A stretch of 64,000 nucleotides of DNA, from the NCBI GenBank assembly GCA_965261595.1, contig CBDHDG010000007.1:384001-448000 (forward strand), given 5' to 3'. Under the pieces are notes generated by a model. The model was given only the letters and a program-made list of their open reading frames with translations. It made no database searches and had not been told where the DNA came from. This stretch comes from a bacterium. Lineage in GTDB: Bacteria > UBA8248 > JACPRG01 > G963555815. Positions within the stretch are counted from its first letter, which is position 1. Each line of letters begins with the position of its first letter. Of the stretch, positions 18,200 to 58,476 are shown piece after piece. The position numbers and the translations under genes were made by a program.

Positions 18200-18220
18200 C
18201 AAGATGGAAAACGTGGTTAA
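18200..18220 (+). repeat. attL-like site
   Basis: CAAGATGGAAAACGTGGTTAA, matches 58456-58476 at 18/21. Confidence 0.72.
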
Positions 18221-18430
18221 AATATCTCACCTCGCCAATGGTGCGACCGAGAACGCTGTGCTGAGATAAAGTGCTGTAAACATTGAATTTATTTTTCATT
18301 ATCCCGTCTCTTGCCCCTTGCATTCCCGCCACGCTTGTGCTCAAATACGCACCGATTTGATGCAGCGTGTGTTCTATTTGATTACGGAATTGCATACCGA
18401 ATCACCATAGAACAAAGGCAAGGAGCGACC

Positions 18431-19231
18431 ATGCCCAGAAGGAGCGAGCTCAGGATCACCAAACGCACCGTGGATGCACTCACCGTCGATGCCAAGGATG
18501 GCGTCTTCTGGGACCGGGACCTGGCGGGCTTCGGGGTGCGGGTCCATGCCACGGGTCGCAAGGTCTACGTAGTGCAGTCCCGGGGGCCGGCCGGACCGAA
18601 GCGAGTGACCCTCGGACGGCATGGGGACATGTCGACCGAGGAGGCGAGGAAGCGGGCGGCCGTGGTCATCGACCGCATCAAGCGGGGGGAGGACCCCGTG
18701 CCCGCGCCGCCCGAGCCGGAGCTCACGTTGGCCGAACTGTCCGAACGGTTCCTGCGCACCCATGTCAAGGTGCATTGCAAGCCGAGCACCGTTGCAACGT
18801 ACCGGTGCGTGCTCGGCAAGCACATTCTTCCCACCCTGGGCGCGATGTCAATCAACGAGGTAGGACGAAGGGAGATTTCCGCGCTGCATCACCGGCTTCG
18901 TGACACGCCTGCAATGGCCAACCGGACGGTCAAGGTTCTGTCGAGAATGTTCTCGTTGGCGGAAGCCTGGGAAAGACTGCCGCCCGGCCGGAACCCGTGC
19001 CGGTCGGTGCGCCGCTACAAGGAGAGGTCGTGCGAGCGGTTTCTGACGCCGGAGGAGTTCCGGCGGCTGGGCCGTGTGTTGAGGGACGCGGAAACGGACG
19101 GCTCGGTGTGGCCGCCGGTGATTGCGGCGCTCCGGCTGCTGCTGCTGACCGGATGCCGGAAGAGCGAGATCCTGACGTTGCGCTGGGAATTTATGGATAG
19201 GTTGTTTCCTGCACGGCGAGTATCCGTATAA
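18431..19231 (+). pseudogene. Tyrosine integrase, C-terminally truncated
   Basis: Arm-binding N-terminus (WDRDLAGFGVRV), LLLTGCRKSEILTLRWE, then unrelated sequence; no HxxR/Y motifs. Confidence 0.85.
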
Positions 19232-19469
19232 CTCATTGATAAATAATTATTCTTGTCGGTATCGCGATGACCATGGAAGGCGCGTTCAGCCTGGGTTCAA
19301 CACTATTTCAACACCGACACCCCGACCGGAAACGGGCGCATGCTTGACGCCGTATGACACCGATTCGAGGGATCCGGCTCGGCCTGGAACAGGCCCTGGA
19401 AGATTACATAGCGGCCTATCCACGTCGAACGGCGGGGATCAACAAATTGTACCGCGAGGGGTTCACGCG

Positions 19470-19620
19470 CCATCGAGGCCGTTATCGGTCGCAACAAACC
19501 GAGGGCCAACTCGATCGAAACTTCCTCAAGGGACGCCTCGGCGTTCAGAGCAACGCCGTCATGAGCACCGCCGACTACAACTTCCGCCTCCTCCTCTATC
19601 GTAGCCATCAGAAACTGGGC
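19470..19620 (+). pseudogene. IS5-family transposase C-terminal remnant
   Basis: EGQLDRNFLKGRLGVQSNAV...YNFRLLL. Confidence 0.5.
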
Positions 19621-19896
19621 CTGCACCTCGATCCGGCCGGAATGACGGTCGCCGCCACGTATCCAGTCCCACTTGAGACAAGTGATCTCCGAGGACCGCG
19701 TGCCAGTGCGATCCGCGTTCTCTCCCCAAAACCGCCGCCCTTTGTTCCTTAGGAACGGATGACTCAAAAGGGAACAGACAAAGGAGACAGCGACCGCCGA
19801 TGAGATACTCGATTCCATCAAGCGGTTCTGTCTGAGAACCCTCAAAACTGCCCAGTATGCAGGATAGTGGTAGAAACTAAAGAATCGGGACAGTAG

Positions 19897-20008
19897 CAGG
19901 CTACTGAATAACTGTTTTGAGAACTGTCACGAGCAATATCGGTTGGCAAATTGCCTAATAACGATTCCATACTGTCGCTATTCGAATCTTTCTTGTTTTA
20001 GCAGCCTG
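19897..20008. mobile_element. Possible MITE (112 bp)
   Basis: Imperfect IRs CAGGCTACTGAA / TTTAGCAGCCTG flanked by GTAG and CTAG. Confidence 0.4.
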
Positions 20009-20027
20009 CTAGAGAGGAACAAAGAAA

Positions 20028-20708
20028 TTAATTGGGACCATTAACCGCTGTTTCGACCCGCTTAAGTGAATCCAAGAGCCGGCTTCCCGCACCTACGATC
20101 TTCGATAGAACTGCAATTTGTTCGCGCAAGGAGATATCTCCTGTAGGTACGGGGTAGTTTATCTGATGATCGACTTCTGCCCAAATTTCCTCAAATAGTG
20201 TTCTCACCTGAATTTCGCAGCACAGCACCGAATCTTCACGCGGACGGACAAGATAATGGACGCTCGTATATGAGGTGGGCTTTTCGGACACTTCGAGATC
20301 GAACTGCTTAAAAAATGAAACTGTTTCGGGATCCCATGTGTATGCTTTGGGCTGCTCGGCAAACCACCAATCACCTTCCTCTAACACCTTGTGCCGAATA
20401 ACTGAATCAATACTCTCGAAATGTTCTTGAAAAAGATGAAGTATTCTAACGCCTGCAAGATCTGTTATTTTAGAAAATAGATTTTCCGAATTAATCTCCG
20501 TTCCTTGCGCGCTCTTTCTAAGAATTTTTTGACGCAAATACTCCCGGTCTTTCAGACGACTCTTGAACGAGTGCACTACTTGGTGACCATTCAAATTTAA
20601 CTCCGGATGCCTTCCGATATAATTGACGACCCCTTCCATAAATATCTGAAGATCATGCCGTTGTTGATCGTACCGTTTAAGAGCATCCTCTATGATGGTT
20701 TCGTTCAT
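20028..20708 (-). CDS. RelA/SpoT-domain small alarmone synthetase-like protein
   Basis: SRLKD, DLAGVR, YTSVH, EIQVRT, WAEVDH motifs; 226 aa, no hydrolase domain. Confidence 0.88.
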   Translation of the reverse strand: MNETIIEDALKRYDQQRHDLQIFMEGVVNYIGRHPELNLNGHQVVHSFKSRLKDREYLRQKILRKSAQGTEINSENLFSKITDLAGVRILHLFQEHFESIDSVIRHKVLEEGDWWFAEQPKAYTWDPETVSFFKQFDLEVSEKPTSYTSVHYLVRPREDSVLCCEIQVRTLFEEIWAEVDHQINYPVPTGDISLREQIAVLSKIVGAGSRLLDSLKRVETAVNGPN

Positions 20709-23213
20709 AGCTCGGCAACCCTGCCAAGAAAGTCTTTGGCAAATTCCTGATAAGCTCTTTGAGTCTTGCGGTATCTCTCTCGGTTTCCAGCAATGGTATT
20801 TTTATCCTCTTGTTCCAGATCCACGTCAGGGAGAAGCCACATTGGTTGGTGGTATTTTTGCGCCATGCTTGGAAATGTGTTGTGGCTGTGGATTACAGAA
20901 TTTCCACCTATGGAGTCCGACAAGAGACCTTCGAAAGGTAACGAGTTCTCTGGATCCAAGTAATGTTCAATTGTTACCGGAATCTGTTTTGGACCGCCCC
21001 TGGGTTATTGGACACTCGGGTGAGGGTATTCGACCTCATGCGGCCTCCGCAACTTGAGCGAGTTTTTCCTGCCTTGCCTGGGCCGGCGTTCGGTAGCCGT
21101 AGCCCTCGAGAATCCAATGATGGTTGTACAGGTTCTTGAACTCAAGCAGCGCCCACCGCAGTTCCTCTACGGTGGCGAAAGAGCGCACCCACAGGAGATT
21201 CTCCTTCAAGATGCGGATGAACCACTCACAGTAGCCATTTCCCTCGGGCGCCCGCACGAAGCTGGGCGAACTGGTCATGCCCAGGTAGGCGATCTCCCGC
21301 TGAAAGTCATCGGACAGATAGGCGGGGCCGTGGTCGTGACGAACTTTAAGCCCCTCGGCGACGTCCGCCTCCAAGCCGGCGAAGCGCTCGGCGACCCCCT
21401 GCCGGATCGGCTCCAGGGCCTCGAAGCGGTTGCCGCTCTTGGCCGCATGGATCCCCACGCAGTCCACCGAGCAGTGATCCACCGCCACGAACACCGAGGC
21501 CATCCCCTCCTCGGTGGTCACCGTCGTCGTCATGTCCGTGCCCCACATTCGGTCGGGCCGCTCGGTGCGGATGGTCCCGTTGTGGGCCTTGGGACCTCGG
21601 GGTTTGCCCACCCGGTGGGGGGCCTGAAGCCCCGCCTCCCGCATCAGGCGACGCACCCGCTCCTTGCTGGTGCGGATGCCCGCGAAGCGCAGCCTCGCCC
21701 ACACCTTGCGGTAGCCCTCGCCATGGAAGGGAGAGTCCTCCAGGACCTGCCGGATGTGGCCGAGGAGTTCCGCATCGGTGCACGGGCCCACAGGGCCGCG
21801 CTTATTGGGCGTGGGGCGTTCATGAACGGGGACCGCCTCTCGCCGCCGTTGCGCGTAGACCGTGGAGCGCGCCAAGCCCCAAAGGGCGCACACCCGCTTC
21901 AGGCCGTAGGCTCTGCCCGTGGAGGTGAAGCGGGCCTGACTCATCGCCTCCACCTCCTGCCGGCTAAAGGGCGGCCGGCCTCCAGGCGGTCGATCTTCTC
22001 CCGCAGGACCTCGCCATCCATCGTGAGTTCGCCCACCTTGGCCTTGAGCCGGGCGTTCTCCTCGTCCCGCTCATCCGCCGGGCGGGCTTTGAGCGCCGCC
22101 TCGCCCCCGCGAAGGAACGCCTCGCGCCAGGCGGAAAGCCGAGCCGCTGTCGTGCCCAACTCGCGGCAGAGCGTCTCCAGGCTCTCGCCCCGCAAAAGAC
22201 GCAGGACCGCCTCCCGCTTGCGCTGGCAGGAGAACCGACCCCGCTCACTGCGATGCCCTGGGGCCTTGGCTCCGTTCGCCCTGCGGGCGCCCTCCGCCAA
22301 AGCCCCCTCTTGCTTTTGTTCGTTCATCGCGACACCCCTTTCTCCATGAATCATGGATCAATCGAGTGTCCAACAAAACCCTAGAGCGGGGGAGTTTCGC
22401 ATAATTGTAGTGTGCTTGCGCAAGATCGAGGTCATTCAGGGATCCCGAGTAACGTTTGGCATTGTAGATTGTCTAACCGATCAGCTTCACAAAGCTCTCG
22501 GGAAACTGGCTGCGTTTGGAGTCTGAGAGCAGGTGGAATATGCTGTCGAACTGTTTCCTCCACACACTCAAGGCGCTGGCGATGTTTCGAATTCCGTAAA
22601 CGGAGAACAGGTCTGGAGAACAGGGTATGAGGAAACCATCTGCCAATGTGAGAAGGTGGCGATTTAATGCACCTAGACTTGGAGAGGTATCAAATATCAC
22701 TAGATCGTAATCATATTTTTTTGTGTACTCGTATGACAACTGACGAACTCTCGTGGCAGTCCTTATTGCAAGTGGGTCTCCTTGATAGATACCGCTCCAT
22801 CGTTCGCCTATCTTTGCCTCGAACAGGTGAAGTGTGAGTCGTCCGGGAATGAGATGAACATTGTCTGTTAACTCTGCTGGTGGAGGTAATGTATCGAGTT
22901 CTCCAGTGCCGTCCTCTGTAGGTTTGAGAGCAAAATGGATCGTACGTGGCATCTTTATGAGTTTGACGAAATCTCTGTCCTTAAATTTGGCTAGCGAAGC
23001 GGCAAAATCGTCAATGAAATCTTCTTCCGGTGCCCAAATATCGTGAATTTTCTCCATACCCAAAGAAAAGATGGTTAGGTTACACTGCGGGTCAAGATCA
23101 ATTAGGAGGACTTTCTTGCCCATTTCACCAAGAGCATGCGCTAAGTGGAAAGTGAGGGTTGTCTTTCCAACGCCGCCCTTATTGTTGAAAATGGTGATGA
23201 TATCAGGATTCAT
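20705..23213 (-). pseudogene. ParA/Soj-family ATPase (366 aa when rejoined), split by IS3 copy 3 and carrying a TAG at 22473
   Basis: NNKGGVGKTT, IDLDPQCNLT, DTSPSLG; frame continuous across the IS after removing one duplication. Confidence 0.85.
20990..22393 (-). mobile_element. IS3-family element, copy 3
   Basis: Near-identical to copy 1; 4-bp duplication GTTT. Confidence 0.9.
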
Positions 23214-23350
23214 AAGAGGCGTTTCCTTTTGGTCACTTCGAGGTTTCTTGTTGTGCCAGTTTGGGGCTATTCTGGTCTGGATTGAAGATACGGTTAAATA
23301 GCAGGGTAAGTCAAATCTGTATGGCAAAATAGAGGTTCGATCTTAGCCCC

Positions 23351-24738
23351 GAGTTACTGTCAAATCTGGTGTATGGGCGTCCTGAATCAAGCGGCTTCCC
23401 TGCCCATCTCTCTCTCGTCAATCCCATCGATGAACTTCACGTCGGCGACCACGCCGGCCAGATGACGGAAGCCGCGTAGCCGACGCCAGCGTTTCTGGGC
23501 GCTCATGGCGAGTTGATGCACGAGGCTCAACGCCGTCTTCTCGCTCAGGCAGTTCCTGGTCTTCACCGTTCGCAGCCGTATGGTCGCGAAGGTCGATTCG
23601 ATGGGGTTGGTAGTCCGCAGGTGCTGCCAGTGAGCCGCCGGGAAGTCGTAGAAGGACAGAAGCGTCTCCCGATCCCTGGCCAGGCAGTCGGCGGCCTTGG
23701 GGTATTTGGCTTCGTAGGTGGCGACGAAGCGCTTGAACGCCTCCTCCGCTCTCGCCCGTGTATCCGCCCGCCAGATCTCATGCAACATCGACTTCGCGCT
23801 GCCCTGAAGGCGTTTGGGAAGCTTGTCGAGCACGTTCGCCGTCTTGTGCACCCAGCAGCGCTGCGCCCGGGTTTCTGGGTACACCTCGGCCAGGGCCGAC
23901 CAGAACCCGAGCCCTCCGTCGCCCACCGCCAGTTTCGCCGCCTTCACCCCGCGGTCGCGCAGGCTCAACAGCACCGCCTTCCAGCTCTCCTTCGATTCCC
24001 GGAACCCCGCATCCAGGGCCAGGAAGTGCTTGCAACCACGCACGTCGCAACCCACCACCACCAACAGACAACGCCGCTCCTCGCTGCGCACGTTCACGTA
24101 TATCCCGTCCGCCCACAGATACACGAACTCCTCGCCTCCCCAGTCACGCTCCCGCCATTGGGCGTACTCGACCTCCCAGCCGCCCTTGAGACGTGCGACA
24201 CTCGCCGCAGACAAACCCTTCACCGATTCGCCGAACAACGCTTGCAAGGCTTCCTCGAAGTCATTCGTCGATACCCCCTTCAGGTACAGCCACGGCACAA
24301 CCGCTTCCACCCGCCTCGTCTTCTTCAGGTAGGGCGGCAACAACTCCGAGCGGAAACAATGTCCCCCGCCGGACCTGTCCCGCGTCCGGGGAACACGGAC
24401 ACGGACCGGGCCGATTCCCGTCAAAACCTCCCGCGAAGGCAGGTAGCCGTTGCGAACGACCGATCGGCGTCCCCGACCGTCGCGCTCGGCCGCATGCTCC
24501 TCCAGGAAGGCCTGCAACTCCGCTTCCACGGCTTGTCGAATGATTTGCCGTGCGCCGTGGCGCACCACTTCGCTGAGTTCGTCCCGAAAGGCTGGATTCG
24601 AAAATGTAACCGTCGTATCTTTCTCCATGGTGGCGCATCTCCTCTCTCGCTGAATAACCGGGCTCTTCACAACCCCATTTCAGCAGGAATGCGCCGCCTT
24701 CTTCAATTCACCCCATACACCAGATCTGAGCGTATCTC
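23351..24738 (-). mobile_element. IS256-family element with apparently intact transposase (23387 to about 24628)
   Basis: WADGIY, VGDGGLGFW, QRCWVHK, TTNPIES; IRs GAGTTACTGTCAAATCTGGTGTATGGG / CCCATACACCAGATCTGAGCGTATCTC. Confidence 0.88.
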
Positions 24739-25378: not shown

Positions 25379-25399
25379 CATTTGCACAAGCTCTCGAGC

Positions 25400-26108: not shown

Positions 26109-27512
26109 TCCCCCGCTCTAGGATTTTGTTGGACACTCGATTGATCCATGATTCATGGAGAAAGGGGTGTCGCGATGAACGAACAAAAGCAAGAGGGGGC
26201 TTTGGCGGAGGGCGCCCGTAGGGCGAACGGAGCCAAGGCCCCAGGGCATCGCAGTGAGCGGGGTCGGTTCTCCTGCCAGCGCAAGCGGGAGGCGGTCCTG
26301 CGTCTTTTGCGGGGCGAGAGCCTGGAGACGCTCTGCCGCGAGTTGGGCACGACAGCGGCTCGGCTTTCCGCCTGGCGCGAGGCGTTCCTTCGCGCGGGCG
26401 AGGCGGCGCTCAAAGCCCGCCCGGCGGATGAGCGGGACGAGGAGAACGCCCGGCTCAAGGCCAAGGTGGGCGAACTCACGATGGAGGGCGAGGTCCTGCG
26501 GGAGAAGATCGACCGCCTGGAGGCCGGCCGCCCTTTAGCCGGCAGGAGGTGGAGGCGATGAGTCAGGCCCGCTTCACCTCCACGGGCAGAGCCTACGGCC
26601 TGAAGCGGGTGTGCGCCCTTTGGGGCTTGGCGCGCTCCACGGTCTACGCGCAACGGCGGCGAGAGGCGGTCCCCGTTCATGAACGCCCCACGCCCAATAA
26701 GCGCGGCCCTGTGGGCCCGTGCACCGATGCGGAACTCCTCGGCCACATCCGGCAGGTCCTGGAGGACTCTCCCTTCCATGGCGAGGGCTACCGCAAGGTG
26801 TGGGCGAGGCTGCGCTTCGCGGGCATCCGCACCAGCAAGGAGCGGGTGCGTCGCCTGATGCGGGAGGCGGGGCTTCAGGCCCCCCACCGGGTGGGCAAAC
26901 CCCGAGGTCCCAAGGCCCACAACGGGACCATCCGCACCGAGCGGCCCGACCGAATGTGGGGCACGGACATGACGACGACGGTGACCACCGAGGAGGGGAT
27001 GGCCTCGGTGTTCGTGGCGGTGGATCACTGCTCGGTGGACTGCGTGGGGATCCATGCGGCCAAGAGCGGCAACCGCTTCGAGGCCCTGGAGCCGATCCGG
27101 CAGGGGGTCGCCGAGCGCTTCGCCGGCTTGGAGGCGGACGTCGCCGAGGGGCTTAAAGTTCGTCACGACCACGGCCCCGCCTATCTGTCCGATGACTTTC
27201 AGCGGGAGATCGCCTACCTGGGCATGACCAGTTCGCCCAGCTTCGTGCGGGCGTCCGAGGGAAATGGCTACTGTGAGTGGTTTATCCGCATCTTGAAGGA
27301 GAATCTCCTGTGGGTGCGCTCTTTCGCCACCGTAGAGGAACTGCGGTGGGCGCTGCTTGAGTTCAAGAACCTGTACAACCATCATTGGATTCTCGAGGGC
27401 TACGGCTACCGAACGCCGGCCCAGGCAAGGCAGGAAAAACTCGCTCAAGTTGCGGAGGCCGCATGAGGTCGAATACCCTCACCCGAGTGTCCAATAACCC
27501 AGGGGCGGTCCA
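26109..27512 (+). mobile_element. IS3-family element, copy 4
   Basis: Near-identical to copy 1; flanks GTAC / ACCG do not match. Confidence 0.9.
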
Positions 27513-27547
27513 ACCGAACGAAAACCGCGACCCGGAGAGACAAAACC

Positions 27548-28389: not shown

Positions 28390-29238
28390 CGTAAAGCCAC
28401 TGCGCGCCTGCGCCAACATCGTCATGAACCAAAGGAAGCCCGTAGCGCGCTATCTCAGCCGGGAGGAGCTCGAACGCCTGGGCGTGGTGCTGGACCGGCA
28501 CAATGACGAACACCCCTGGCCGGTGGCGGCCATTCGTCTGCTCACCCTGGCCGGGGCGCGGCTCTCCGAAGTGCTCAATCTGCGGTGGGAGGAGATCGGG
28601 GAGCTGTCCGAGGACGGCGGCGCAAACGCCCGGCTCGAAGACTCCAAGACCGGGCCGCGCACCATCTGGCTAGGGCCGGAGGCGGCGAAGGTCCTCGCGT
28701 CCCTTCCCCGGCGCGAGGGCCGGGTGTTTCCCGAGGATCTCACATCCCAACGGCTCTACGCCTTCTGGTGCGGCGTCCGGGAGGAAGAGGGACTGCCCGG
28801 CCTTCGTATTCACGACGCACGGCACACCTGGGCGTCCCAGGGCGTCATGAACGGTGTCGGGATCGCCACCGTGGGGCGGCGCTGCTCGGCCACAGGCAGC
28901 GGTCCACCACCGCGATCTATGCTCATCTTGACGATAACGCCTTGCAGGATGCCGCCGCGCAGGCGGCGCGAGTGATCGCCGAGGCCATGGGATACAAGGC
29001 CGAGCTGTTGCCGGAGGAGACGGATGACACCGTGGACGGCAGGCAAGCGCAGTCTGCTTCGTTCGAACCGTTGCCGCCATCGCCTGGGCCGCAGCGGCCG
29101 GAGGAACAGGAAGCCGATGTCATCGCCCGGTTGAGACGGTGGGACTGGCTGGGCGGTAGCAGATCGGAACCTTCGGACGGGGCAGGGTCGAAGGACAGGA
29201 GCGAGCCCACCCAGCCGCAGGGACTGGTGAATATTTGA
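28390..29238 (+). pseudogene. Second tyrosine integrase, catalytic half only, frameshifted
   Basis: GARLSEVLNLRW, DSKTGPR, RIHDARHT, then LLGH...IYAH in another frame. Confidence 0.82.
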
Positions 29239-45200: not shown

Positions 45201-46802
45201 GAGCCTGTAAGAGGACTTGACGTCCTCATCTCAGAGGGCCAAGCACGCAGTCATGAAAGCCTCTTCCTTTTCACCTGCCGACCCGACGTTCGAGTTGATG
45301 AGTCAAGGGCCGTAAGGGTGCCCCTAACCGGGCTTACGGAGGATGAAACCAGGGAGCTGATCATAGCCCGTAGAGCCCTTGAGAAGGATCACCATCTGGT
45401 GCAGGAACTGCATCGAACGACTGATGGGCATCCCTTGTGGGTGAACCTGATCGCGATGCAAGCAGTTCAGCATGAGGATGGACTTCGCGGGGCCTTGGAC
45501 CTGATTAAGCAGGGCGGGGCGACGCTTCCAGATACGACGAGGACCATCTGGGGCATGTTGAACGACCAGCAACGCAACGTGCTTCGTACAATGGCCGAAT
45601 TGGACCGACCAGAACCCGCGAGTCACCTGCTAGACCTGCTTCCCGGCGTCAACGCGAATCGAGTGAATCGAGCGCTGAAGGCACTGCGGTCCTTTCATCT
45701 GATAGAGACACGGACGCAGCCGGAGGGGGAGCCTTTGCTTGGGCTACACCCGATCATTCGCGAGTTTATCAGGACTAGTTTTCCGAAGAAGGATCGTGAG
45801 AAGTACGTTGGCGCGATCCTTGACTTCTTGGACCAGATGATCGGTCGCTTCAAGAGCCTTCTTCCACAGGAACCATCGTACGACATCCTGGAACATTGGA
45901 CGCGAAAAGCTGAACTGCAGATCACATTTAGGCGCTTTGAAGAAGCAACTTCTACCATCGCTGAAATCGCACTCCCGCTGGTCAACCGGGGCTACTCAGA
46001 AGAAATGGTCCGGCTTACGATACGTCTTCTCGGCGAATGCGACTGGGCGGAGGCGTGTTCTTCATACAAGGATTTCGATGCCGTCTTCGAAGAGTGCCTC
46101 ACTCAAATGATTCAGAGCGGACACGACACCTCTGAGGATCTCTTGACACAGTATGAAGCTGCGATCCCAGGCAAGAGCTCGCAGTTCATCTTGCTATGTC
46201 AGCTCCGGTGCTATGCGGACTGGTATACCAGCAAATACGACTCGGCTATTCGATGGGGCGAGAAGGGCGAGCGACTGAAGGAACGTACGTCCGTCGATAC
46301 AGGGTTCTCGACGACGCACAATCTGGCCCTGTCTCGGCGGGATGCAGGACGCGTGCCGGAAGCGGTCGAGAGTTTCCTTGAAGGCGAGTCGTTGGAGACG
46401 GTGGTTACACCGGGCGAGCGAGTTCAGGGCAAGGGAGCACAGTTCTACGGGAACATTGGCCGATGTCTCTTCCTGACTAGTCGCTTGGATGAGGCTCTAG
46501 TTTGCTATGTAAAGTCGGCTCAGTTGCTCGAAGAGGGCCGTACTCGTATGGACCGCCTCAACAAGGGCTACATTAGATACTGGATTGCTGAATTACTGGT
46601 GCAGCAAGAGGAATTCGAGTTGGCAGCGGCTTCGTATCGTGCCGCAGTGTGCATTTGGGATGATTCCTCTCCTCCTCGAGCAGGTCAAGCGAAAGAGAAG
46701 CTGGAGGCCTTGGTGACTGCGCATCCGGAACTTCACAACTACCTTGTCCAGGAGGACTGGAAGGCGGAAGAGGCATACGGGCGTTGGTTGGCTCGTCAGT
46801 AG
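42287..46802 (+). pseudogene. SIR2-like + STAND (NB-ARC/NACHT-like) ATPase + TPR-like protein (1035 aa when rejoined), split by IS3 copy 6
   Basis: TTNFD, HLHG, IGYSGWD; GLGGQGKS, LLVFDNVD, GHPL; helical repeat C-terminus; alternative start 42236. Confidence 0.85.
42816..44219 (+). mobile_element. IS3-family element, copy 6
   Basis: Near-identical to copy 1; 4-bp duplication AGTG. Confidence 0.9.
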
Positions 46803-47254: not shown

Positions 47255-50200
47255 TCAAAGGCCCAAGTCCATCTCGACCCGTTTCCCACGATCCGGCGTA
47301 GCCGGCTCCCGGTCCTTCACGGCCGGCTCGGTCTCTTTCCCGGCCGCCTCGCTCCTGCCGCGGTCCGTATCCCGGGTGGCTTCAGCCTCCCGATCCGCCG
47401 TCCGTCCCGCGTTCGCAGCCGCTTCCATGCCCTTTGCCGGCGCGTCCCGCGCCGCCTCTCCGATCCCCTCCAGCGCCGATATGCGCTCGCCTGTGGCCGT
47501 TTCGAGCTGCTCGCGCAGCCGCGCCGCATCGTCCGTCACCAGCTCGGCCCGGTCGCGGGCGCGGCTGATCTCCACATAGAAGCTCTTCTGCGTGGTGAGG
47601 TGGGGGTGATTGGCCTCCATCGCCGCGATCACGTTGTCCACCGTCCGGCCCTGAAAGGCATGCACGGTCGAGGCCCAGGCATGGTCGAGATGGTGCAGCT
47701 GGGGATCGCCCGCCTTCATGTCGAGCACGCGCCCGTCTTCCAGACGGAAGGTCACACGGCCGTCCTTCACGCTCGCCACCTCGGCGGTGCGGCTGTTGAC
47801 GAGGCCGAGGCCCTTGTCGTTGCGGGTCCAGCGGATGCGGTCTCCGGCGCGAAGCTCGATGCCCTCGGCTCGGTAGACCTCGGCGCCGCCTGTCCGCCCG
47901 GCGATCCGGCCCGGCTTCCACGGAACGGTCCTGCCGTCCCCGCCTTCGAGTATCACCGTATGGCTCTTGTGATCCACGTCGGCGACCCGGCGCTCGTCGC
48001 CCTTGTCGATTCCGAGCGTCTTGTAGGGGCGGTGGAAGGCGACGATATCGCCCTCGGCGTAGTTGGTCGCGAGCGATTTCTCGGCGTTCGTGTAGCCGTG
48101 GGAGACCAGCCGCTCGCCCGTGAAGGCGGGGCCGTGGATCCTGCCATCGCGCGCGAGGCGCTCCCGGATATGACCGTTGATCTCCCGGCGAAGCTCATGG
48201 CTCGGCGCCATGACGCCGGTGTTCTCTCTCGCCTCGGGGGACAGCTTGAGCCAGCGCGCCGCCACCGCGCCCGCGATGTTGTCGGCCTGGACCTCGGCTA
48301 CGTTGGGGCCGAGCTTCTCGAAGGCCTTGCCGATCTCGCCGGCGAGGCTCGCCTTCACGGCCGCCTTCAGTTCCGGGTCGCGCTGGCGCAGGATCTCGTC
48401 CATCACCGCGGTCTTCATGCCTGCCCGCTACAACTGCGCAAAGGGTTTGCCGGCGTCGACAGCGTCGAGCTGTTTCTCGTCGCCGACCAGGACCACGCGG
48501 GGGACGCGGAGCGCGTTCGCGATCCTGAGCAGATCGCGGGCCTGGACGGTGGAGGCGAGCGAGCCCTCGTCCACCACCAGCACGGTCTTCCGCCAGGCGG
48601 CGCGCATCTCCCGCGCGCCCTTGGCCGTAAGACGGCCCTCGGCGATGCCGGCGTTCCGCGCGAGGAACAATTGCAACGTCTCGCTTTCGATCCCGGCTTC
48701 CGTCCCGAGCGTCTTGACCGCCGAGGCCGACGGCGCCAGTCCCATCATGCGGTAGCCGTTCTTGCCGGCAAGGGCGTTGGCGCGCCGCAGCATGGTGGTC
48801 TTGCCGGTGCCGGCATAGCCCTGCACGCCGACGACGCGGTCCTTCGAAGACAGGATCAGCTTGACGGCCTGCTTCTGCCCCTCGGTGAGCGGTCCCTTGT
48901 GCAGCCGCGCGCTCGCCATCCAGCTTCGCATCACCACCGGGCTTCTGTCCTGTCCGCCTTGCATCAGGGCGATGGTCTCGCGCTCGCCGGCGAGCGCCTT
49001 ATCGGTGGTCATGCCGTCGCCGCCCATGAGCGCCGGGGCGCAATGGAGCCGTCCTTCGCCTTCGAGGGCGCCGACGGCTTTTTCCGCGGCCTCGACCGAG
49101 ACGGCGCCGGGCATCCAGGCGAGGGCGGCGGCGAGCAGATCGGCGCGCGAGAACACCGCCTCGCGTTCGGCGAGATGCGCCATCGCCCATTCCGCGGCCT
49201 CGGCCGCCGGCTCCTTCGTTGCCGGTTCCCGCCGCGTTGGGTCGGTTTCCGCGATGGCGGCGGAAGACCCGACGGCATCCGCCGGAGCGGGATCGACATC
49301 CCGTTCGGGAGCGTTCTCCCGGCCGGAGTCCCTGCCGGCTTCCCTCACCACGGCCCCGGCGACAAGCGCCCGCGCATCGAATCCCAGGCCGGCGGCCTGC
49401 TTCTCCCAGCTTGCCTTGAGCGTCGCCTTGTCGACCTCGCGCTTGTGGGCCCGGGTCATCAGCGCCGCGCGCTCGGCGAGGCGCTGGTTCTCGGCGGTGC
49501 CGCTCATGCCCCGCTCGGCCATCGCCGCCTCGATCTCCGCCCGCCGGGTCGAGAACGCCTCGATGACCTTCCTCGGGACCCCGGCGATCTCGAAGCGTCC
49601 GTCGGCATGGCTCTTCTCGATGCCGTAACCGAGCTTGCCCAACTCCCGCGCGAGTTCGCTCCGGTAGATGATGCCAATCAGCTTCTGGCGGCGGTAGAGC
49701 GCCTCGTTGGCCATGGTCCGCCACTTGCCGTCCCCGCCCTGGACCATGTTGGCGAGGACCGCGTGGGTGTGGAGCTGGGGATCGAGATTGCGCGAGGCGT
49801 CGTGCCGGAAGGTCGCGGCCACCGTCTTCTGGTCCCCGGCCCGGACCATGCGGCTGGTCTCCGGGTCCTTCAACCGGGTCTCGGCGGCGTTGCCCTCGAT
49901 CCAGGCCAGCGAGCGCTTCACCGCCCGGTCGTGGGCGTCGACCACGCGCCCGTCGCCGCCGATCAGCGCGGCGAGCGAGACGGATTTGGGAGCCGAGAAG
50001 GTGAGATCGCGTCCGGGCCGGTGCTGCAGGACCCCATCGGGTCCCCCGCGTCCGAGTTGCCGGCCGGTCCCGTCGAGTACCTTGCCCTCCAGCACCGCCT
50101 TGAAGAGGTCCGGATCGACCGGGCCGGAGAGGCCGAGGTCCTCCGCGCCCTTGCCGGTCCAGGCGCTTGCGTCCCTGTGGGCCGGGTCGTCCCTGGCGTA

Positions 50201-50272
50201 GTAGCCGTCCCTCTCGTAATAGGAGATGCCCTGGGCAGAGGACGCGACGGCGCCGATCGAGACGACCATCAC
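47255..50272 (-). pseudogene. MobF (TrwC/TraI-type) relaxase-helicase, one frameshift near 48425
   Basis: YYERDGYY, DLTFSAPKSVS, HDASRNLDPQLHTH, GYAGTGKT, VVDE, TVHAFQG. Confidence 0.9.
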
Positions 50273-52371
50273 AGCCAGTCGGCCGGACAGCGCTCGTCCG
50301 CGCCGCCGGTACCGCTGTCCTCGGGTTCATCCGGATCGGCCGCGGGGTCATTCCGTTGCCCGGAAAGAGCGGAATCCCGGCCGCCGGAACCGGCAACCGG
50401 GACCTCGGGCATTTCCGCGCCTTCCGCTTCCACCGCGCGGCATTCGGCCGGGGCCGGCTCGAGACCGAGCTCGGGTTGATCGCCGGTCCATTCGGCCGCC
50501 GAACTCGCCACGCCCGTATCGCCATGCTCGCTTTCGTTCCCGGCATCGCCCGGCGCCGGGGCATCGGTGTCGCGCCCGCTTCCGGAATCGGCCCCGGTCA
50601 CATCGGAGACCCAACCGCCTTGCTCCGAAGGCCCTTCCTCCCTGGGCACGAAGCGCTCGGCCGCCTTGGGCCTCTTCACGTAGTCGAGTCCGATCCGGGC
50701 CACGGGCCAGGGTCCCGGGAACTTCAGATACCCCTGCAGGTTCTCGAGCCGCATGATCTCCGACGGCAGGGCCAGGGAACGCATCTCACGACGCTGGGTC
50801 AGCGAGACCCCGTCGCGCATGACGCTGGCCCCGTAGCTCATCCCGTGGGAATACTCCTCGACCTCGCCCCGCCCCAGGCTTTCGGCCGACCACCGGGCCG
50901 TCTCCTGGTCGGGCGCGGCCAGGACCACACGGGTACCGCACAGCCCGGATATCGTCTCCGCCCCGTTTTTTCCGTAGAGGTCGCGCAGGGCCGAGATCAC
51001 CTGGATCCCGAGCACGAAGCATCCTCCGAACTGGCGGGACTCGGCCAGCCCCGGCTGGAGGCTCGGCACCTGGTGAAGGGTGGGCAGCTCGTCCAGGACT
51101 ACCCAGACCCGGCGCGCATCGTCCTGATGGAGGGAAAGGAGCGCGTTCACCGCGATCTCGAGCCAGGTAGAGATGAGCCCTCTCAGGCTCGCGTGCTGGT
51201 CGCCCCGGGAGGTCAGGAACAGGAACCCGGTCCCGTCCTCTTGGCCCACCCAGTCCCGGATCGAGAAGGGCTCTCCCGTATCGGGCAGGAACTCGAGCGC
51301 TCCCAGGTGCGCGGTCAGCATGGCCCGGACCGAGAGCGCGGTCTTGGGGTTTTCGGGGTCCACGATGGACTGGGCCACCGTGCCCTCCATGGCCCGGGCC
51401 AGGGCCGTCAGGTCGGTCTTGAGCAGGTGGTCGACCAGCACCCGGTTTTCGGTCACCCCCTGCTTCCAGAGCACGCCCGCGCCGTTGGAGAACAGCTGCC
51501 TGGCGGCCGTGACCCAGAAGGGGTCCACCGTGTCCTTCTGCTGGGGGATGAGGGCGGCGGCCATCATGTCGAAGTCCCGGGGGGTCCTGGCCTCGAAGAA
51601 GGGCGACCAGCGGGGCGCCCGGGCATCGAGGGGGTTCATCAGCACGTCGCGGGCGGGATCGAAGAAGGAGCGGGTATAGCTCCCCATCTTGTCGTAGAGG
51701 ATGCAGCGCTCGCCCCGGGCGCGGAGCCGGGCGACGAGGTCGGAGATCAGGACGGTCTTGCCCGAGCCCGTGGTGCCGGAGACGATGGTGTGCTGGGTCT
51801 CGGCGCGTTCTGGCCAGGGGATCCCGGCGATGCGGCAGGAGGCCCGGCGCGCGGCGGGGAACAGGGCCTCGGCCAAGCGCGCGGACACGGGCTGCACGCG
51901 CCTTCTCAGCTCCCGGGCCGTCGTCATTTCCGCGCCGCGGACCCGTTGGGCGCGGTCCAGGCGCCTTCCCAGGACCGAGAACAGGACCGTACAGAGGACC
52001 GCGCCCCCCACTCCGATCCAGAGGCCGAGCCACGCCCTGGCGTATACCGTATGGAGGAGGCGTTTCCGGATCCGCTCGATCCTGGGGTCCCTAGCGATGT
52101 CGACGATCCTCAGGGCCGTTTTTTGGCCCTCTCGCCACTCGTACGCCTGGAGGGAGTGCCGGGGGTATCCGAGCACGAGCTTGGCCTGGGCGAGGGTCCC
52201 GGTGCCCACGAGGCGCCATTCATGGGCGGTGGTTGTGCGGAACAGGGCCGCGGCCGGGACCAGGACGACGGTCAGGGCGATGCCGAAAAGCCCCCACCTG
52301 ACCAGCTGGCCCCACATGTGGACGTCGTGGGCCAGGGTCTGGCCGCCCCTGAGCGTTGCGTTGCCGAACAT
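50269..52371 (-). CDS. Type IV coupling protein (TraD/TrwB family)
   Basis: Two N-terminal TM segments, GTTGSGKT, VLDELP; 4-bp overlap with the relaxase start. Confidence 0.9.
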   Translation of the reverse strand: MFGNATLRGGQTLAHDVHMWGQLVRWGLFGIALTVVLVPAAALFRTTTAHEWRLVGTGTLAQAKLVLGYPRHSLQAYEWREGQKTALRIVDIARDPRIERIRKRLLHTVYARAWLGLWIGVGGAVLCTVLFSVLGRRLDRAQRVRGAEMTTARELRRRVQPVSARLAEALFPAARRASCRIAGIPWPERAETQHTIVSGTTGSGKTVLISDLVARLRARGERCILYDKMGSYTRSFFDPARDVLMNPLDARAPRWSPFFEARTPRDFDMMAAALIPQQKDTVDPFWVTAARQLFSNGAGVLWKQGVTENRVLVDHLLKTDLTALARAMEGTVAQSIVDPENPKTALSVRAMLTAHLGALEFLPDTGEPFSIRDWVGQEDGTGFLFLTSRGDQHASLRGLISTWLEIAVNALLSLHQDDARRVWVVLDELPTLHQVPSLQPGLAESRQFGGCFVLGIQVISALRDLYGKNGAETISGLCGTRVVLAAPDQETARWSAESLGRGEVEEYSHGMSYGASVMRDGVSLTQRREMRSLALPSEIMRLENLQGYLKFPGPWPVARIGLDYVKRPKAAERFVPREEGPSEQGGWVSDVTGADSGSGRDTDAPAPGDAGNESEHGDTGVASSAAEWTGDQPELGLEPAPAECRAVEAEGAEMPEVPVAGSGGRDSALSGQRNDPAADPDEPEDSGTGGADERCPADWL

Positions 52372-52534
52372 GATGAAGCCCTCCTCTTACAAAACACCGG
52401 GGTGTTTATGCCCCGGGCGGGCGCATGGACTCCGGGGAGAGGCCGGGGAAGGCGGAGGTCCGGGTGCAGGGACTCTTGGACCGGAGAGGCCGGCACCCGC
52501 GATCTCCTGAACCCCAACCCCGGAGGAACGAACC

Positions 52535-52900
52535 ATGACCGACGCCAATCCATCCGGCAGCTGGCGCGCCCGGGCCTTCGTCCTCGGCGGGATCGCACTC
52601 GCCCTTGCCGTCACCGTCTTTTCCGTCGTCATCGCGATCGGTGCCCGCTTCCTGGGGGCCATCTGGTTCTGGGCGGTGATATGGACCATTCTTGCCGCTC
52701 TCGCGTGCGCCCTGTGGCGGGGGCTCCGCTATCGGGACTGGTCCGCCTTTGGCGGGTACGAGCTCCCGAAAGAGGGCGGCGATCGGTTCGACTGGGCGAC
52801 CAGGACCGGCCGCTACGCCTGGCTCCGTGACCTCGAGGACGGGCATCTCCACGACCAGGATCACCTTCGCGGTCATGGCCCGAGCACCTGGTCCCTGTAG
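52535..52900 (+). CDS. Small hypothetical membrane protein
   Basis: GGAGG RBS, two hydrophobic segments. Confidence 0.55.
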   Translation: MTDANPSGSWRARAFVLGGIALALAVTVFSVVIAIGARFLGAIWFWAVIWTILAALACALWRGLRYRDWSAFGGYELPKEGGDRFDWATRTGRYAWLRDLEDGHLHDQDHLRGHGPSTWSL

Positions 52901-54087: not shown

Positions 54088-54356
54088 ATTTGTTCCTCCT
54101 CCGTAATGTAGCGTGTGTCTGCCGTTGACTGAGTCGAAAAGCACCAATCGACGTGAGGGCCGTGCAAGATGCAGTGCGCAAGGGCCGTCAAGCGGCACCA
54201 CGCGTGGCGAGGCCGTGAGTGTTCAAATCATGTAAACGGCGGTGTAAAACTGTCCCAGTGAGGCGGTCGGATATTCTGGCGGCGGCGGTCTAAAAGTGGA
54301 CCGCTCTTTGGTCTTCCTTCAGGTTTGCAGGATACGACCTGAAGGGAGGCTGGAGG

Positions 54357-57267
54357 ATGTACTCAGTGGAACTGTACGCACGGGTTCGGCACGCCTGCCA
54401 CGTAGAAGGGATGAGCATCCGCGAAGCGGCGCGGGCGTTTGGTTTGCACCGGGACACGGTGCGCAAGATGCTGCGGTTTTCGATACCGCCCGGGTATCAG
54501 CGGAGTCATCCCCGGGCGAGGCCGAAGCTGGATCCGTTTATGGGTGTGATCGACCACATCGTGGAGGGGGACCGGAAGTGTGTGAGGAGACAGCGTCACA
54601 CGGCCAAGCGGATCTTCGAGAGGCTGCGCGACGAGCACGGTTTCACGGGCGGTTACAGCATCGTGAAGGACTACGTGCGGGAGCGGCGGTAGCGGTCCCA
54701 GGAGATGTTCGTTCCCCTGGTCCACCCACCCGGCCATGGCCAGGCGGATTTTGGCGAGGCCCTGGCGGAGATTGCCGGGGTGGAGGGGAAGGTATCGTTT
54801 TTCACCTTCGATTTGCCCCACAGCGACATGGGTTTCGTGAAGGCCTATCCTGCGGAGAGGACCGAAGCCTTCTGCGCCGGTCATAACGCGGCCTTCGCCT
54901 TCATCGGCGGTATCTCTCACAGCATTCTCTACGACAACACCAAGCTTGCGGTGGCGCGCATCCTGGGCGATGGGAAGCGTCAGCGCACCCGGGCCTTTAG
55001 TGAGTTGCAGTCCCACTACCTGTTCAAAGAACGTTTTGGCCGTCTGGGCAAGCCGAATGACAAGGGGAAGGTCGAGAACCTGGTGGGCTATGTCCGGCGG
55101 AACTTTTTCGTTCCCATCCCGCGCATTGAGAGCTTCGAGGCCCTCAATGCCCACCTGGAGGAGCAGTGCCGGAAGCGGTGGTCCCCCGCTCTAGGGTTTT
55201 GTTGGACACTCGATTGATCCATGATTCATGGAGAAAGGGGTGTCGCGATGAACGAACAAAAGCAAGAGGGGGCTTTGGCGGAGGGCGCCCGTAGGGCGAA
55301 CGGAGCCAAGGCCCCAGGGCATCGCAGTGAGCGGGGTCGGTTCTCCTGCCAGGCGCAAGCGGGAGGCGGTCCTGCGTCTTTTGCGGGGCGAGAGCCTGGA
55401 GACGCTCTGCCGCGAGTTGGGCACGACAGCGGCTCGGCTTTCCGCCTGGCGCGAGGCGTTCCTTCGCGGGGGCGAGGCGGCGCTCAAAGCCCGCCCGGCG
55501 GATGAGCGGGACGAGGAGAACGCCCGGCTCAAGGCCAAGGTGGGCGAACTCACGATGGAGGGCGAGGTCCTGCGGGAGAAGATCGACCGCCTGGAGGCCG
55601 GCCGCCCTTTAGCCGGCAGGAGGTGGAGGCGATGAGTCAGGCCCGCTTAACCTCCACGGGCAGAGCCTACGGCCTGAAGCGGGTGTGCGCCCTTTGGGGC
55701 TTGGCGCGCTCCACGGTCTACGCGCAACGGCGGCAAGAGGCGGTCCCCGTTCATGAACGCCCCACGCCCAATAAGCGCGGCCCTGTGGGCCCGTGCACCG
55801 ATGCGGAACTCCTCGGCCACATCCGGCAGGTCCTGGAGGACTCTCCCTTCCATGGCGAGGGCTACCGCAAGGTGTGGGCGAGGCTGCGCTTCGCGGGCAT
55901 CCGCACCAGCAAGGAGCGGGTGCGTCGCCTGATGCGGGAGGCGGGGCTTCAGGCCCCCCACCGGGTGGGCAAACCCCGAGGTCCCAAGGCCCACAACGGG
56001 ACCATCCGCACCGAGCGGCCCGACCGAATGTGGGGCACGGACATGACGACGACGGTGACCACCGAGGAGGGGGTGGCCTCGGTGTTCGTGGCGGTGGATC
56101 ACTGCTCGCTGGACTGCGTGGGGATCCATGCGGCCAAGAGCGGCAACCGCTTCGAGGCCCTGGAGCCGATCCGGCAGGGGGTCGCCGAGCGCTTCGCCGG
56201 CTTGGAGGCGGACGTCGCCGAGGGGCTTAAAGTTCGTCACGACCACGGCCCCGCCTATCTGTCCGATGACTTTCAGCGGGAGATCGCCTACCTGGGCATG
56301 ACCAGTTCGCCCAGCTTCGTGCGGGCGCCCGAGGGAAATGGCTACTGTGAGTGGTTTATCCGCATCTTGAAGGAGAATCTCCTGTGGGTGCGCTCTTTCG
56401 CCACCGTAGAGGAACTGCGGTGGGCGCTGCTTGAGTTCAAAAACCTGTACAACCATCATTGGATTCTCGAGGGCTACGGCTACCGAACGCCGGCCCAGGC
56501 AAGGCAGGAAAAACTCGCTCAAGTTGCGGAGGCCGCATGAGGTCGAATACCCTCACCCGAGTGTCCAATAACCCAGGGGCGGTCCAGTGGGGAGCACGCC
56601 TGCGTGGGCACAGAGAGAGCATCGGCGAGCGCTTTGAGCGGGACCGGCAGGTCCTTTTGCCGTTGCCGCCGTTGCCGTACGACGCCTGTGAGAAGAGCGG
56701 TACGCGGGTGAGCTCTCTGTCTTTGGTGCGCTACCGGGGGGCAACGACTACTCGGTTCCCGTGGCTTACGGCCACCGTGAGGTGCTGGTTCGGGGCTACG
56801 TGCACGAGGTGGTCATCACCTGCGGGACGGAGGAGATTGCCCGTCACCGGCGCTCCTGCGAGCGGGAGGACCTGGTCTTCAACCCGCTGCATTACCTGGC
56901 GCTGATTGAGAAGAAGATCGGTGCACTGGATCAGGCGGCGCCCCTGGCCGGGTGGGAGTTGCCCGAGGCATTCGGCACGCTGCGCAGGCTGCTTGAAGCG
57001 CGCATGGGCAAGGCCGGCAAGCGGGAGTACGTCCAGGTCCTGCGGCTGCTCGAGACGTTCGGGTTGGAGGAAGTTGACGCCGGGGTCCGGGATGCCCTGC
57101 GGCTGGGAACCATCGGCTTCGATGCGCTCAAACACCTGATGCTGTGCCGCATCGAGCGCAGGCCTGCCCGGCTGAACCTGGAGGTCTATCCCTATCTGCC
57201 GCGCGCCCGGGTTGCGACAACCTCCGCCCGGGCGTACCTGGACCTGCTCACGGGGGTGCGGCCGTGA
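54357..57267 (+). pseudogene. istA: IS21 transposase (TAG at 54690, IS3 insertion, frameshift near 56740)
   Basis: GQADFG, LYDNTK, KGKVEN, YSVPVAY fragments. Confidence 0.85.
55182..56586 (+). mobile_element. IS3-family element, copy 7 (1-bp insertion in orfA)
   Basis: Near-identical to copy 1; 4-bp duplication GTGG. Confidence 0.9.
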
Positions 57268-58055
57268 AGGAGACTCCCCAGGTGCTCCTGGCCCATCACC
57301 TCAAGGCGCTCAAGCTGCCCACCTTCGGGAGGGAATACGACAAGGTCGCCCGGCAGTGCGCCGCCGAGGGGGTCGACCCCGTGCGTTTTTTGATGCGCCT
57401 GTCCGAGCTGGAGCTGATTGACCGGGAGCGCCGGATGGTGGAGCGGCGAATCAAGGCGGCGCGCTTCCCGGCGGTCAAGAGCCTGGAGCGCTTCGACTTC
57501 CTGGCTCTGCCCTCCCTCAACAAGACGCTGGTTGTGGAACTGGCGAGGTGTGAGTACATCGAACGGCGCGAGAACGTGATTGCCCTGGGCAACAGCGGCA
57601 CAGGCAAGACCCACATCGCTCTGGGTCTCGGGCTTGCGGCGTATCAGAAGGGGTTGTCCGTCGGCTTCACACCCGCCGCCGCGCTGGTCAACGGGTTGCT
57701 CGAAGCGCGTGACGAAAAGCGTCTGCAGCGCCTTCAGAAGCAACTGGCCGCCTACAAGCTTCTGATCATCGATGAACTGGGCTTCGTGCCCCTGTCCAAG
57801 ACCGGCGCCGAACTGCTGTTCGAGGTCTTCAGCCAGCGCTATGAGCGCGGCTCTATCCTGGCGACGAGCAACCTGCCGTTCGACGAGTGGACCGAGATCT
57901 TCGGCTCCGAGCGGCTGACCGGCGCCCTGCTCGACCGCCTGACGCATCACGTCCACATCCTGGAGATGAACGGCGAAAGCTATCGGCTCAGGCAAAGTAG
58001 GAAACGGCGCTCAAACAAACAAGCAAAGCCTCAAGACTCCGTCCCAATGGAGTGA
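57264..58055 (+). CDS. istB: IS21 helper ATPase
   Basis: GNSGTGKTH, LIIDELG, LLDRLTHH, GESYR. Confidence 0.9.
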   Translation: MKETPQVLLAHHLKALKLPTFGREYDKVARQCAAEGVDPVRFLMRLSELELIDRERRMVERRIKAARFPAVKSLERFDFLALPSLNKTLVVELARCEYIERRENVIALGNSGTGKTHIALGLGLAAYQKGLSVGFTPAAALVNGLLEARDEKRLQRLQKQLAAYKLLIIDELGFVPLSKTGAELLFEVFSQRYERGSILATSNLPFDEWTEIFGSERLTGALLDRLTHHVHILEMNGESYRLRQSRKRRSNKQAKPQDSVPME

Positions 58056-58455
58056 GGCCACAACCCAGGAAGGGGGCCCATGGGCCCCCTTCTTCACACA
58101 CCAGGTGGGACACTTGCCGCCACGCCGGTACACTTTTACTCCGCCCTTGACACCGTGTACCGCAACCGCTTGACTCTCCTGCCGCCATCGAATTGCGAAA
58201 GCACTGGGTCGGGGCGACCACGTTCGGACAGGACAACGGACCGCTGCTGGCCCCGGCGCCATCATCACCCCACGACTGAATGCTTACCAACAGGGACTCG
58301 CCGAGATGCGCAGGAGTTTTAACGAATCCGCTTTCATTTTGATTACGGACTGCAGAAGGCAGGTTTCGAATGAGATTGGAAATTATGTATATTCTCAATA
58401 ATATCAATAGTATAATAGGATCTCACGGCTGGAAAGAACGGCTTTACGGCTGAAT

Positions 58456-58476
58456 CAAGATGCAAAACGTCGTGAA
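58456..58476 (+). repeat. attR-like site
   Basis: CAAGATGCAAAACGTCGTGAA, matches 18200-18220 at 18/21. Confidence 0.72.

Follow-up and report, generated by a model that had tools for sequence, protein, structure and literature searches.

The common picture of an integrative element is that of a single-copy guest in a tRNA or housekeeping gene. The P4-like integrase islands at tRNA genes have a single-copy target that is restored by integration, and their attP matches the target exactly over a block to one side of the crossover. The element described here, called E, lies in the transposase gene of an IS256-family insertion sequence (IS), within a stretch of 64,000 nucleotides (the window) that is part of contig C7 of the source assembly G000, that of a sponge-associated bacterium (6.17 Mb in 7 contigs; completeness 96.7%, contamination estimate 5.57%). 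A second element, called E2, was found inside int1, the first integrase gene of E.

Several described systems come close to E. Streptococcal integrative mobilizable elements (IMEs) integrate into another mobile element, at the oriT of ICEs (integrative and conjugative elements; PMC7563843). The GInts need ginABCD, which comprises three integrases and a small fourth protein, together with a cargo of 2.5-70 kb, and their attachment-site variants are said to drive target specificity (PMC5385486). The SEs (strand-biased circularizing integrative elements) are described as non-mobilizable elements with the order intA-tfp-intB-srap, 1-2 copies per replicon, and a range restricted to Gammaproteobacteria (PMC10214605).

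Our results indicated that the window most probably holds a copy of a mobilizable E, which integrated site-specifically into the IS256 gene and is now decayed, recombinant, and interrupted by E2. The parts of the interrupted IS256, the junctions, and the arms of E in the window are the following.

15911..15986, plus strand: IS256 left end, with the terminal inverted repeat (TIR), the first 72 bp, and a 4-bp AAAC duplication from an IS3 insertion; the 9-bp target-site duplication (TSD) TATATTTAA precedes it, and the 72 bp also stand before the transposase part in 7 other left copies
15987..17390, minus strand: IS3-family IS inside the IS256 left end, with orfA (137 aa) and orfB (305 aa); HTH_Tnp_1, HTH_21, and rve were found on an identical copy, and it is one of ~187 genome copies
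17391..18214, plus strand: N-terminal two thirds of the IS256 transposase in two frames (PF00872 26-91 and 95-264; frameshift near 17705)
18200..18220, plus strand: attL, a 21-bp imperfect direct repeat whose core AAAACGT spans 18208-18214; contigs of the empty site diverge right after 18214
18215..18430, plus strand: left (P') arm of E, with a 12-bp candidate arm-type site at 18377-18388; the arm is kept from the junction onward in genome G006
58261..58463, plus strand: right (P) arm of E, AT-rich and common to all 9 right junctions, with the second 12-bp copy at 58338-58349; 58364-58452 is homologous to the G006 right arms
58456..58476, plus strand: attR, a 21-bp imperfect direct repeat whose core AAAACGT spans 58464-58470; 9 of 9 copies have the same sequence
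58471..58861, plus strand: C-terminal third of the IS256 transposase (PF00872 259-324 and 330-371) and right terminal repeat, followed by the flank ACTTACGG, which equals no left-end flank

The IS256-family transposase frame stops with ...QRCWFHKMENV at 18200-18220 and restarts with NVVKKVRK from 58466. The split point in the gene is 18214/18215, and the gene is picked up again at 58471. The 21-mers at 18200-18220 and 58456-58476 were equal at 18 of the 21 positions, with mismatches at positions 8, 16, and 19, and the unbroken core AAAACGT was common to both junctions (18208-18214 and 58464-58470). In the Pfam profile search, which was used for the transposase and integrase domains, four pieces of the gene covered positions 26-91, 95-264, 259-324, and 330-371 of PF00872 (Transposase_mut, 379 positions; best E = 2.2e-45). 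With the left piece reaching profile position 264 and the right one beginning at 259, the gene is contiguous, and the overlap represents duplicated codons only. A split transposase with 18/21 repeats around AAAACGT had been described in the first-pass annotation of this DNA, and it was borne out both by the reading of the sequence and by the contiguity in PF00872.

The interrupted IS showed the features of the IS256 family, which are a Mutator/IS256-type DDE transposase, imperfect TIRs, and TSDs of 8-9 bp. Its length was ~1.3 kb (left end 15911, right end 58861, the IS3 insertion discounted), and its ends were sharp in 8 left and 9 right copies, the inverted repeat being read by eye. The transposase gene contained two frameshifts, one near 17705 and one near 58660-58690, both common to all IS256 copies of the source genome. 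On the side of E, an exact 12-bp repeat was present with one copy in each arm of the window copy (2 matches versus 0.13 expected), and these repeats may represent candidate arm-type sites.

The empty form of the target was found in metagenomes. Logan contigs of four runs were placed on L023:500-4400 only, L023 being an intact left-junction copy in which position 646 corresponds to window 17391. Contigs of runs X6 (seawater) and X10 (hydrothermal vent) followed the left part of the IS256 to the base equal to window 18214 and went on past it for 105 and 125 letters, the first 30 of which agreed with window 58471-58500 at 30/30 and 29/30 positions. These contigs showed that an uninterrupted IS256, joined in the 7-bp core, exists in seawater and hydrothermal-vent metagenomes, and this is the empty attB that the first-pass annotation had predicted. 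Together with the anatomy of the junctions, they also support its proposal of a tyrosine-recombinase integrative element in the IS256 gene with the crossover in the 7-bp AAAACGT. Depth over E was zero in X6 and X10 and was given no weight, the contigs across the junction being the evidence used. In run X15 (0.98 of query words), which may represent the source organism, a single 1314-nt contig bridged attL. The runs that contained the query were mostly sponge metagenomes. The X10 contig had 'TG' added at the base equal to window 17705, and because these two extra bases close the first frameshift, the IS256 copies of the source genome carry a 2-bp deletion there. The seawater variant was without the two bases.

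The IS256 left half was found at 8 places in the assembly and the right half at 9, none of them adjacent. All 8 left halves ran through the same junction into int1 with at least 98.5% identity over 1798 bp, and at least 195 bp of common arm preceded all 9 right halves. Variation in the left 21-mer was confined to position 8 (6 copies with G, 1 with T, and 1 with C) and, in 2 copies, one core position. With 8 left and 9 right junctions in the genome, the junction is not unique. The choice of the site had been ascribed either to relaxed specificity or to a multicopy IS as the target. The target is indeed a multicopy IS, but one and the same core is used at all 8 left and 9 right junctions, and the specificity of E is strict, not relaxed. 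At up to 1 mismatch, the 21-mer of the empty site matched only the 9 attR sites of the assembly and the attP 21-mer matched only 6 attL sites, and therefore the assembly contains neither an empty IS256 nor an attP. Two intact IS256-family transposase genes of the window, at 23390-24670 (minus strand) and 31237-32601 (plus strand), have 4 and 20 genome copies, and neither was interrupted by E.

Intact copies of E, such as L023, carry the two integrase genes int1 (394 aa) and int2 (405 aa) in tandem. The two proteins are 56% identical to each other, and in L023 each has the domains Arm-DNA-bind_3, SAM-like, and Phage_integrase (PF00589). The int1 stop overlaps the int2 start (L023 2867-2870) with no gene between, and no third integrase was found after int2 in L023. 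The order of int1 followed by int2 was kept in 4 of the 8 left copies. In two of these four, another insertion was present, which is an IS3 within int2 in one case and an IS256-family element within int1 in the other. Presumably int1 and int2 act together, possibly one per half-site.

The relatives of E in G020, a genome of a related genus, were compact units of 13-15 kb that consist of the left end, int1, int2, a few small genes, and a TrwC relaxase of 938 aa on the opposite strand; one G020 copy was swollen to 25 kb by an insert. For the right ends in G020, BLAST gave only ragged limits with a possible GGAATT core. By tblastx, the window was collinear with these relatives at int1 (18422-19201), the relaxase (47357-50269), and a small gene (52570-52861). 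The corresponding genes of the window, for which the relaxase and the coupling protein were also searched with NCBIfam and its cut-offs, are given below.

18431..19188, plus strand: int1, a P4-like tyrosine integrase cut after ~253 codons, with the Arm-DNA-bind_3 and SAM-like domains and no catalytic domain
47258..50272, minus strand: MobF/TrwC relaxase-helicase, split in two open reading frames (ORFs; 47258-48418 and 48431-50272), with TrwC, AAA_30, and UvrD_C_2 (NF041492 MobF, 282 bits versus a cut-off of 100), collinear with the 938-aa G020 relaxase
50272..52371, minus strand: type IV coupling protein, TrwB/TraD-like (TrwB_AAD_bind, 1.4e-137; TraD_Ftype, 496 bits, under the cut-off of 521)
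52570..52861, no strand assigned: small backbone gene that adjoins the relaxase in the G020 relatives (tblastx, 41-54% identity)

Relaxase and coupling-protein modules like those of the window were present at ~9 more places of the genome with 77-95% identity. The predicted order of an intact E is the left arm, int1, int2, cargo, the MobF relaxase on the opposite strand with or without the coupling protein, and a short AT-rich right arm. Among the 80 ORFs of the interval 18200-58476, which were scanned against Pfam, no gene of a type IV secretion system (T4SS) other than that of the coupling protein was found. PF03135 (VirB4) had no match in the whole genome (96.7% complete), other VirB4-like families not being searched. 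Because it has its own MobF relaxase, no further T4SS gene, and no PF03135 match, E was filed as an IME and not as an ICE. Apart from excision, it fits the definition of an IME.

Judged by its genes, the window copy can no longer move by itself, with int1 cut, int2 missing, the relaxase split, and at least 13 transposase genes or fragments inside the interval. An integrase just inside the left junction had been reported in the first-pass annotation. Its ATG was found at 18431, 216 bp inside, but the gene is cut by another element, and the second integrase is missing. The catalytic domain that is present beside the junction in intact copies (L023 int1 and int2) was missing in the int1 of the window. 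No int2 was found in the window, and the sole other integrase-like match in its span of C7 was a 37%-identical fragment at 28409-28929. The element that cuts int1 is E2.

19182..20935, no strand assigned: E2 junction and left end, in int1 at the 7-bp core GCTGGGA (19182-19188); the same 7 bp stand at the right junctions C6:1294119 and C2:36320

Intact int1 reads through GCTGGGA, and in the window foreign sequence follows directly after it. At C6:1294119 and C2:36320, the foreign sequence ends in GCTGGGA and is followed by the rest of int1 and by int2. The E2 integrase, with 425 aa and 29% identity to int1, lies just inside the right junction of E2 (C6:1293039-1294119 and C2:35240-36320). E2 was present at the same int1 site in 4 of the 8 source-genome copies and at 3 G006 loci, with variants that differ by ~30%. 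Such diverged variants at one site in several loci point to repeated independent insertions. The E2 site falls among the codons for the integrase's conserved L-R-W-D stretch. GCTGGGA is also present in int2, and no E2 insertion was seen there.

The transposases of the interval comprise four full and one truncated IS3, two other IS256-family members, two IS110, one IS21, and fragments of IS1595, IS4-like, and IS3-like elements. The 1.4-kb IS3-family element (orfA 137 aa, orfB 305 aa) has ~187 genome copies at 99% identity or more, and seven of them lie in the window.

12552-13902, 16002-17352, 21005-22355, 26147-27497, 32663-34010, 42854-44204, and 55220-56571: the seven IS3 copies

The probable cargo of the interval includes an apparent cargo protein with SIR2, NB-ARC, and TPR domains (859 aa, window 44223-46799), an AAA_21 ATPase, a solute-binding protein, a ParA-like ATPase, and a RelA/SpoT-like protein. 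Another SIR2-domain protein, of 919 aa (L023 5363-8122, minus strand), is encoded beside int2 at C7:1.30 Mb, and these large SIR2-domain cargo proteins may be defence genes. The RelA/SpoT-domain protein has 226 aa, the size of a small alarmone synthetase, and its gene lies at 20031-20708 (minus strand), just inside the left end of E2. It is followed by the gene of the ParA-like ATPase (22476-23327).

The family of E extends well beyond the source genome. From exactly window 18216, the E side of the query matched 8 places in G006, a genome of a sister genus in the same family (85-90% identity), and it matched each of 13 genus-g7 genomes at 3-16 places (at least 10 places in 11 of them; 66-76% identity), while the IS256 side of the query had no match in G006 or the 13 genus-g7 genomes. 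Relatives of int1 with 57-90% amino-acid identity were found at 80 loci, and by their record titles these belong to metagenome-assembled genomes (MAGs) of Nitrospinota and of Alpha-, Gamma-, and Deltaproteobacteria, several with sponge-type names. The int1-int2 tandem was kept in 69 of the 80 loci; among the 11 without it, 5 were at a contig end, 3 had int1 truncated at codon 257-280, and 3 were otherwise different. IS256 of the window type was present within 3 kb of the int1 relatives in none of the 80 loci.

In G006, the left arm is kept from the junction onward, and the right arm is homologous to window 58364-58452. The ~17 bp between the right arm and the crossover differ and match a ~70-bp multicopy repeat of G006. 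The left half of this repeat gave 19 matches, which were 5 attL and 14 unoccupied sites (control 0), and 3 of the 15 matches of its right half were attR (control 0). The repeat (e.g., C1 4594712-4594764) has a short GC hairpin and at least 14 unoccupied copies. No second G006 junction motif was found within 12 kb downstream of the G006 integrases. Two right arms of the source genome, on C3 and C4, were joined to the same kind of repeat as in G006. The repeat was also considered as the end of an IS, and this was not adopted, as Pfam gave nothing in 7 neighbouring ORFs and the sequence behind the repeat had only 2-4 copies in G000. At C5:999860-1000170 (minus strand), a related right arm was joined to a chromosomal ORF resembling a membrane-protein gene, at a core similar to the IS256 core, and this chromosomal place may be a secondary site.

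The family thus retains its arms while its core is exchanged, and in both resolved cases the core agrees with multicopy DNA. A wider generalization is tentative, and we give it slightly less than an even chance. A cross-phylum family of mobilizable elements with tandem integrases in sponge symbionts would swap an attP core of 15-17 bp that mimics a multicopy repeat of the host, reaching IS-like copy numbers (8-16), sparing host genes, and knocking out the target IS; since E2 targets E, the result would be a three-level chain of selfish elements.

As for the mechanism, the attP of E would have recombined conservatively with the site in the transposase gene of the 1.3-kb IS256-family element, with strand exchange within the 7-bp AAAACGT. 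The ~15 bp of attP left of the crossover would mimic the IS256 codons K-M-x-N-V. By this route, E would have entered existing IS256 copies one by one and would not have been carried by IS256. In the left flank, E varied among the copies in 39 of 973 columns versus 5 of 888 for IS256 (Fisher p = 3e-7), with the caveat that the left-flank count includes 16 indel columns. In the right flank, the numbers were 14 of 195 versus 3 of 392 (p = 3e-5), again with a caveat, as the first 14 right-arm columns lie at a ragged boundary. The higher variation of the E flanks than of the IS256 parts favours the entry of diverged E copies into a young, near-identical set of IS256.

The same copies could have arisen in another way, if E was inserted once and IS256-type transposition, using transposase supplied in trans, then spread the composite of IS256 and E to 8-9 places. 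Such copying would agree with the occupation of every IS256 copy and the lack of an empty one in the source genome, with a TSD of 8-9 bp of its own at every copy, as after transposition, and with the frameshifts common to all copies; other intact IS256-family transposases, with 4 and 20 copies, are available in the genome. It is nevertheless unlikely to be the explanation. Variability in the E flanks exceeds that in the IS256 parts 7-10 times, and a load of 13-40 kb or more far exceeds the usual cargo of IS256. In addition, the target repeat of G006 is only partly filled (5 attL versus 14 unoccupied), which is the pattern of site-specific integration, and the E2 variants ~30% apart at the same int1 site show that repeated site-specific insertion occurs in such genomes. 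One-by-one entry of E into IS256 copies is accordingly the reading that we prefer.

The two ends of the window copy were further examined by their TSDs. The 8-9 bp beside the IS256 ends gave 6 exact pairs in 72 left-by-right comparisons, by which 5 of the 8 left ends were covered, and two further pairs were found with a 1-base offset. The left end of the window (TATATTTAA) paired with the right half C7:460036 on the minus strand, which is ~60 kb away and 17 kb beyond the right half of the window. No TSD partner for the right half of the window (ACTTACGG) or for the left half C4:629157 was present among the IS256 ends of the genome. Since the TSDs of its two ends differ, the 40-kb interval is a recombinant copy. 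The first-pass annotation had treated the 40 kb as one coherent element, a view that has to be abandoned, as the TSD pairing assigned the two halves to different IS256 elements.

Along C7, left half 1 is followed after 40 kb by right half 2 and, 17 kb further on, by the inverted right half 1. The simplest account of this order would be that homologous recombination inverted a segment between two E copies in opposite orientation, or between IS copies within such E copies. The 17-kb segment C7:442862-460035, which starts at window 58862, has inward-pointing IS256 right halves at both sides, which is the footprint expected of an inversion between E copies. Other TSD pairs were on different contigs or hundreds of kb apart, and therefore either such exchanges are frequent or some long-range joins are wrong. 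An uninterrupted orthologous site was not found in relatives: the left flank at window 14000-15910 (1.9 kb) matched none of 8 related genomes, and the matches to the flank of the TSD partner were confined to short repeats. The TSDs are therefore the sole basis of the pairing.

If many joins were wrong, the separation and mismatch of the halves would be an artefact of assembling a repeat-saturated genome, and each left half would really be joined to its own right half. The ~187 copies of the 1.4-kb IS and the many other repeats would make such errors plausible, as would the 7 contigs and the contamination estimate of 5.57%, and the TSD pairs C5:53302(-)/C6:32916(+) and C3:53927(-)/C6:1747141(-) lie near contig ends in orientations that fit contig adjacency. 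Other pairs lie deep in contigs in incompatible orientations, among them the window pair, whose halves are plus and minus, 60 kb apart, on one contig, and the local junctions are backed by independent short-read contigs. An artefact on this scale is very unlikely, and it would concern only which halves belong together, not the insertion itself. That the 40-kb interval is one intact and possibly active element inserted once into this IS256 copy, as the direct repeats, the adjoining integrase, and the relaxase and coupling protein inside the interval might suggest, can be dismissed almost entirely, because the TSDs of the two ends differ with the true partner of the left end elsewhere, int1 is truncated, int2 is missing, and the interval contains a nested element in addition to at least 13 transposase genes or fragments.

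Besides the two caveats on the column counts, several points weigh against the interpretation of the window as a copy of a mobilizable E that integrated site-specifically. With no PF03135 T4SS ATPase in the genome, no conjugation pore is apparent that could move E. Within the reach of the assembly and of the metagenome contigs over the left junction, neither an attP or circular form, rare examples of which could have been missed, nor an empty IS256 was seen in the source organism, which makes activity of E in the source host hypothetical. The window copy is without the C-terminal part of int1 and without int2, so that its continuity over 40 kb is a matter of gene order only. The genome is very rich in repeats, with ~187 copies of the 1.4-kb IS, and errors in some long-range joins are possible. 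The variation of the E flanks could be inflated by gene conversion with diverged relatives of E, such as the 87%-identical C4:857752. Finally, all IS256 copies share the two frameshifts, which leaves it unclear how IS256 itself multiplied and which composite copying would fit.

The use of multicopy selfish DNA as a landing pad would explain both the 8-16 copies per genome and the inactivation of every target IS copy here. Conserved arms with exchanged cores provide a natural series for studying how target specificity changes in tyrosine integrases, and in a pair of them. Scattered identical copies of E also provide sites for the large rearrangements of this symbiont genome, which is saturated with IS. 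Annotators should not assume that an attL and the attR following it on a contig are the two ends of a single element.

Compared with known systems, E resembles the P4-like islands in the Arm-DNA-bind_3, SAM-like, and catalytic domains of its integrases and in an attP block equal to the target on one side, but the target of E is a multicopy selfish gene that is destroyed by integration. The target itself agrees with the IS256 family in its transposase, TIRs, TSDs, and length, whereas in the source genome every copy is split by E and carries two frameshifts. In common with the IMEs with a tyrosine integrase, E has an integration module, att direct repeats, and its own relaxase, lacks its own conjugation pore, and has its target inside a selfish element (PMC7563843). 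Unlike these IMEs, it has two tandem integrases and a target in the coding sequence of the IS256 transposase, with all 8-9 copies filled, and its hosts are sponge-type MAGs of several phyla. The GInts share with E a 5'-end recombinase operon, cargo that varies, a 3' end that is short and AT-rich, and flanking imperfect direct repeats (PMC5385486). E differs by its two P4-type Arm-DNA-bind_3 integrases (69 of 80 loci) and its relaxase, and the ginABCD set that defines the GInts is not that of E. With the SEs, E shares two tyrosine recombinases at the left end of an integrative element of ~15 kb (PMC10214605). The overlap of int1 and int2 leaves no tfp between them, so that the order intA-tfp-intB-srap is not that of E, and E further differs from the SEs in having a relaxase, 8-16 copies per genome, and hosts in several phyla. 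In the titles and abstracts of the literature, no description turned up of an IS256 or other IS transposase gene as an attachment site or of IMEs with tandem integrases. Taken together, E is best regarded as a variant of the IME-type elements.

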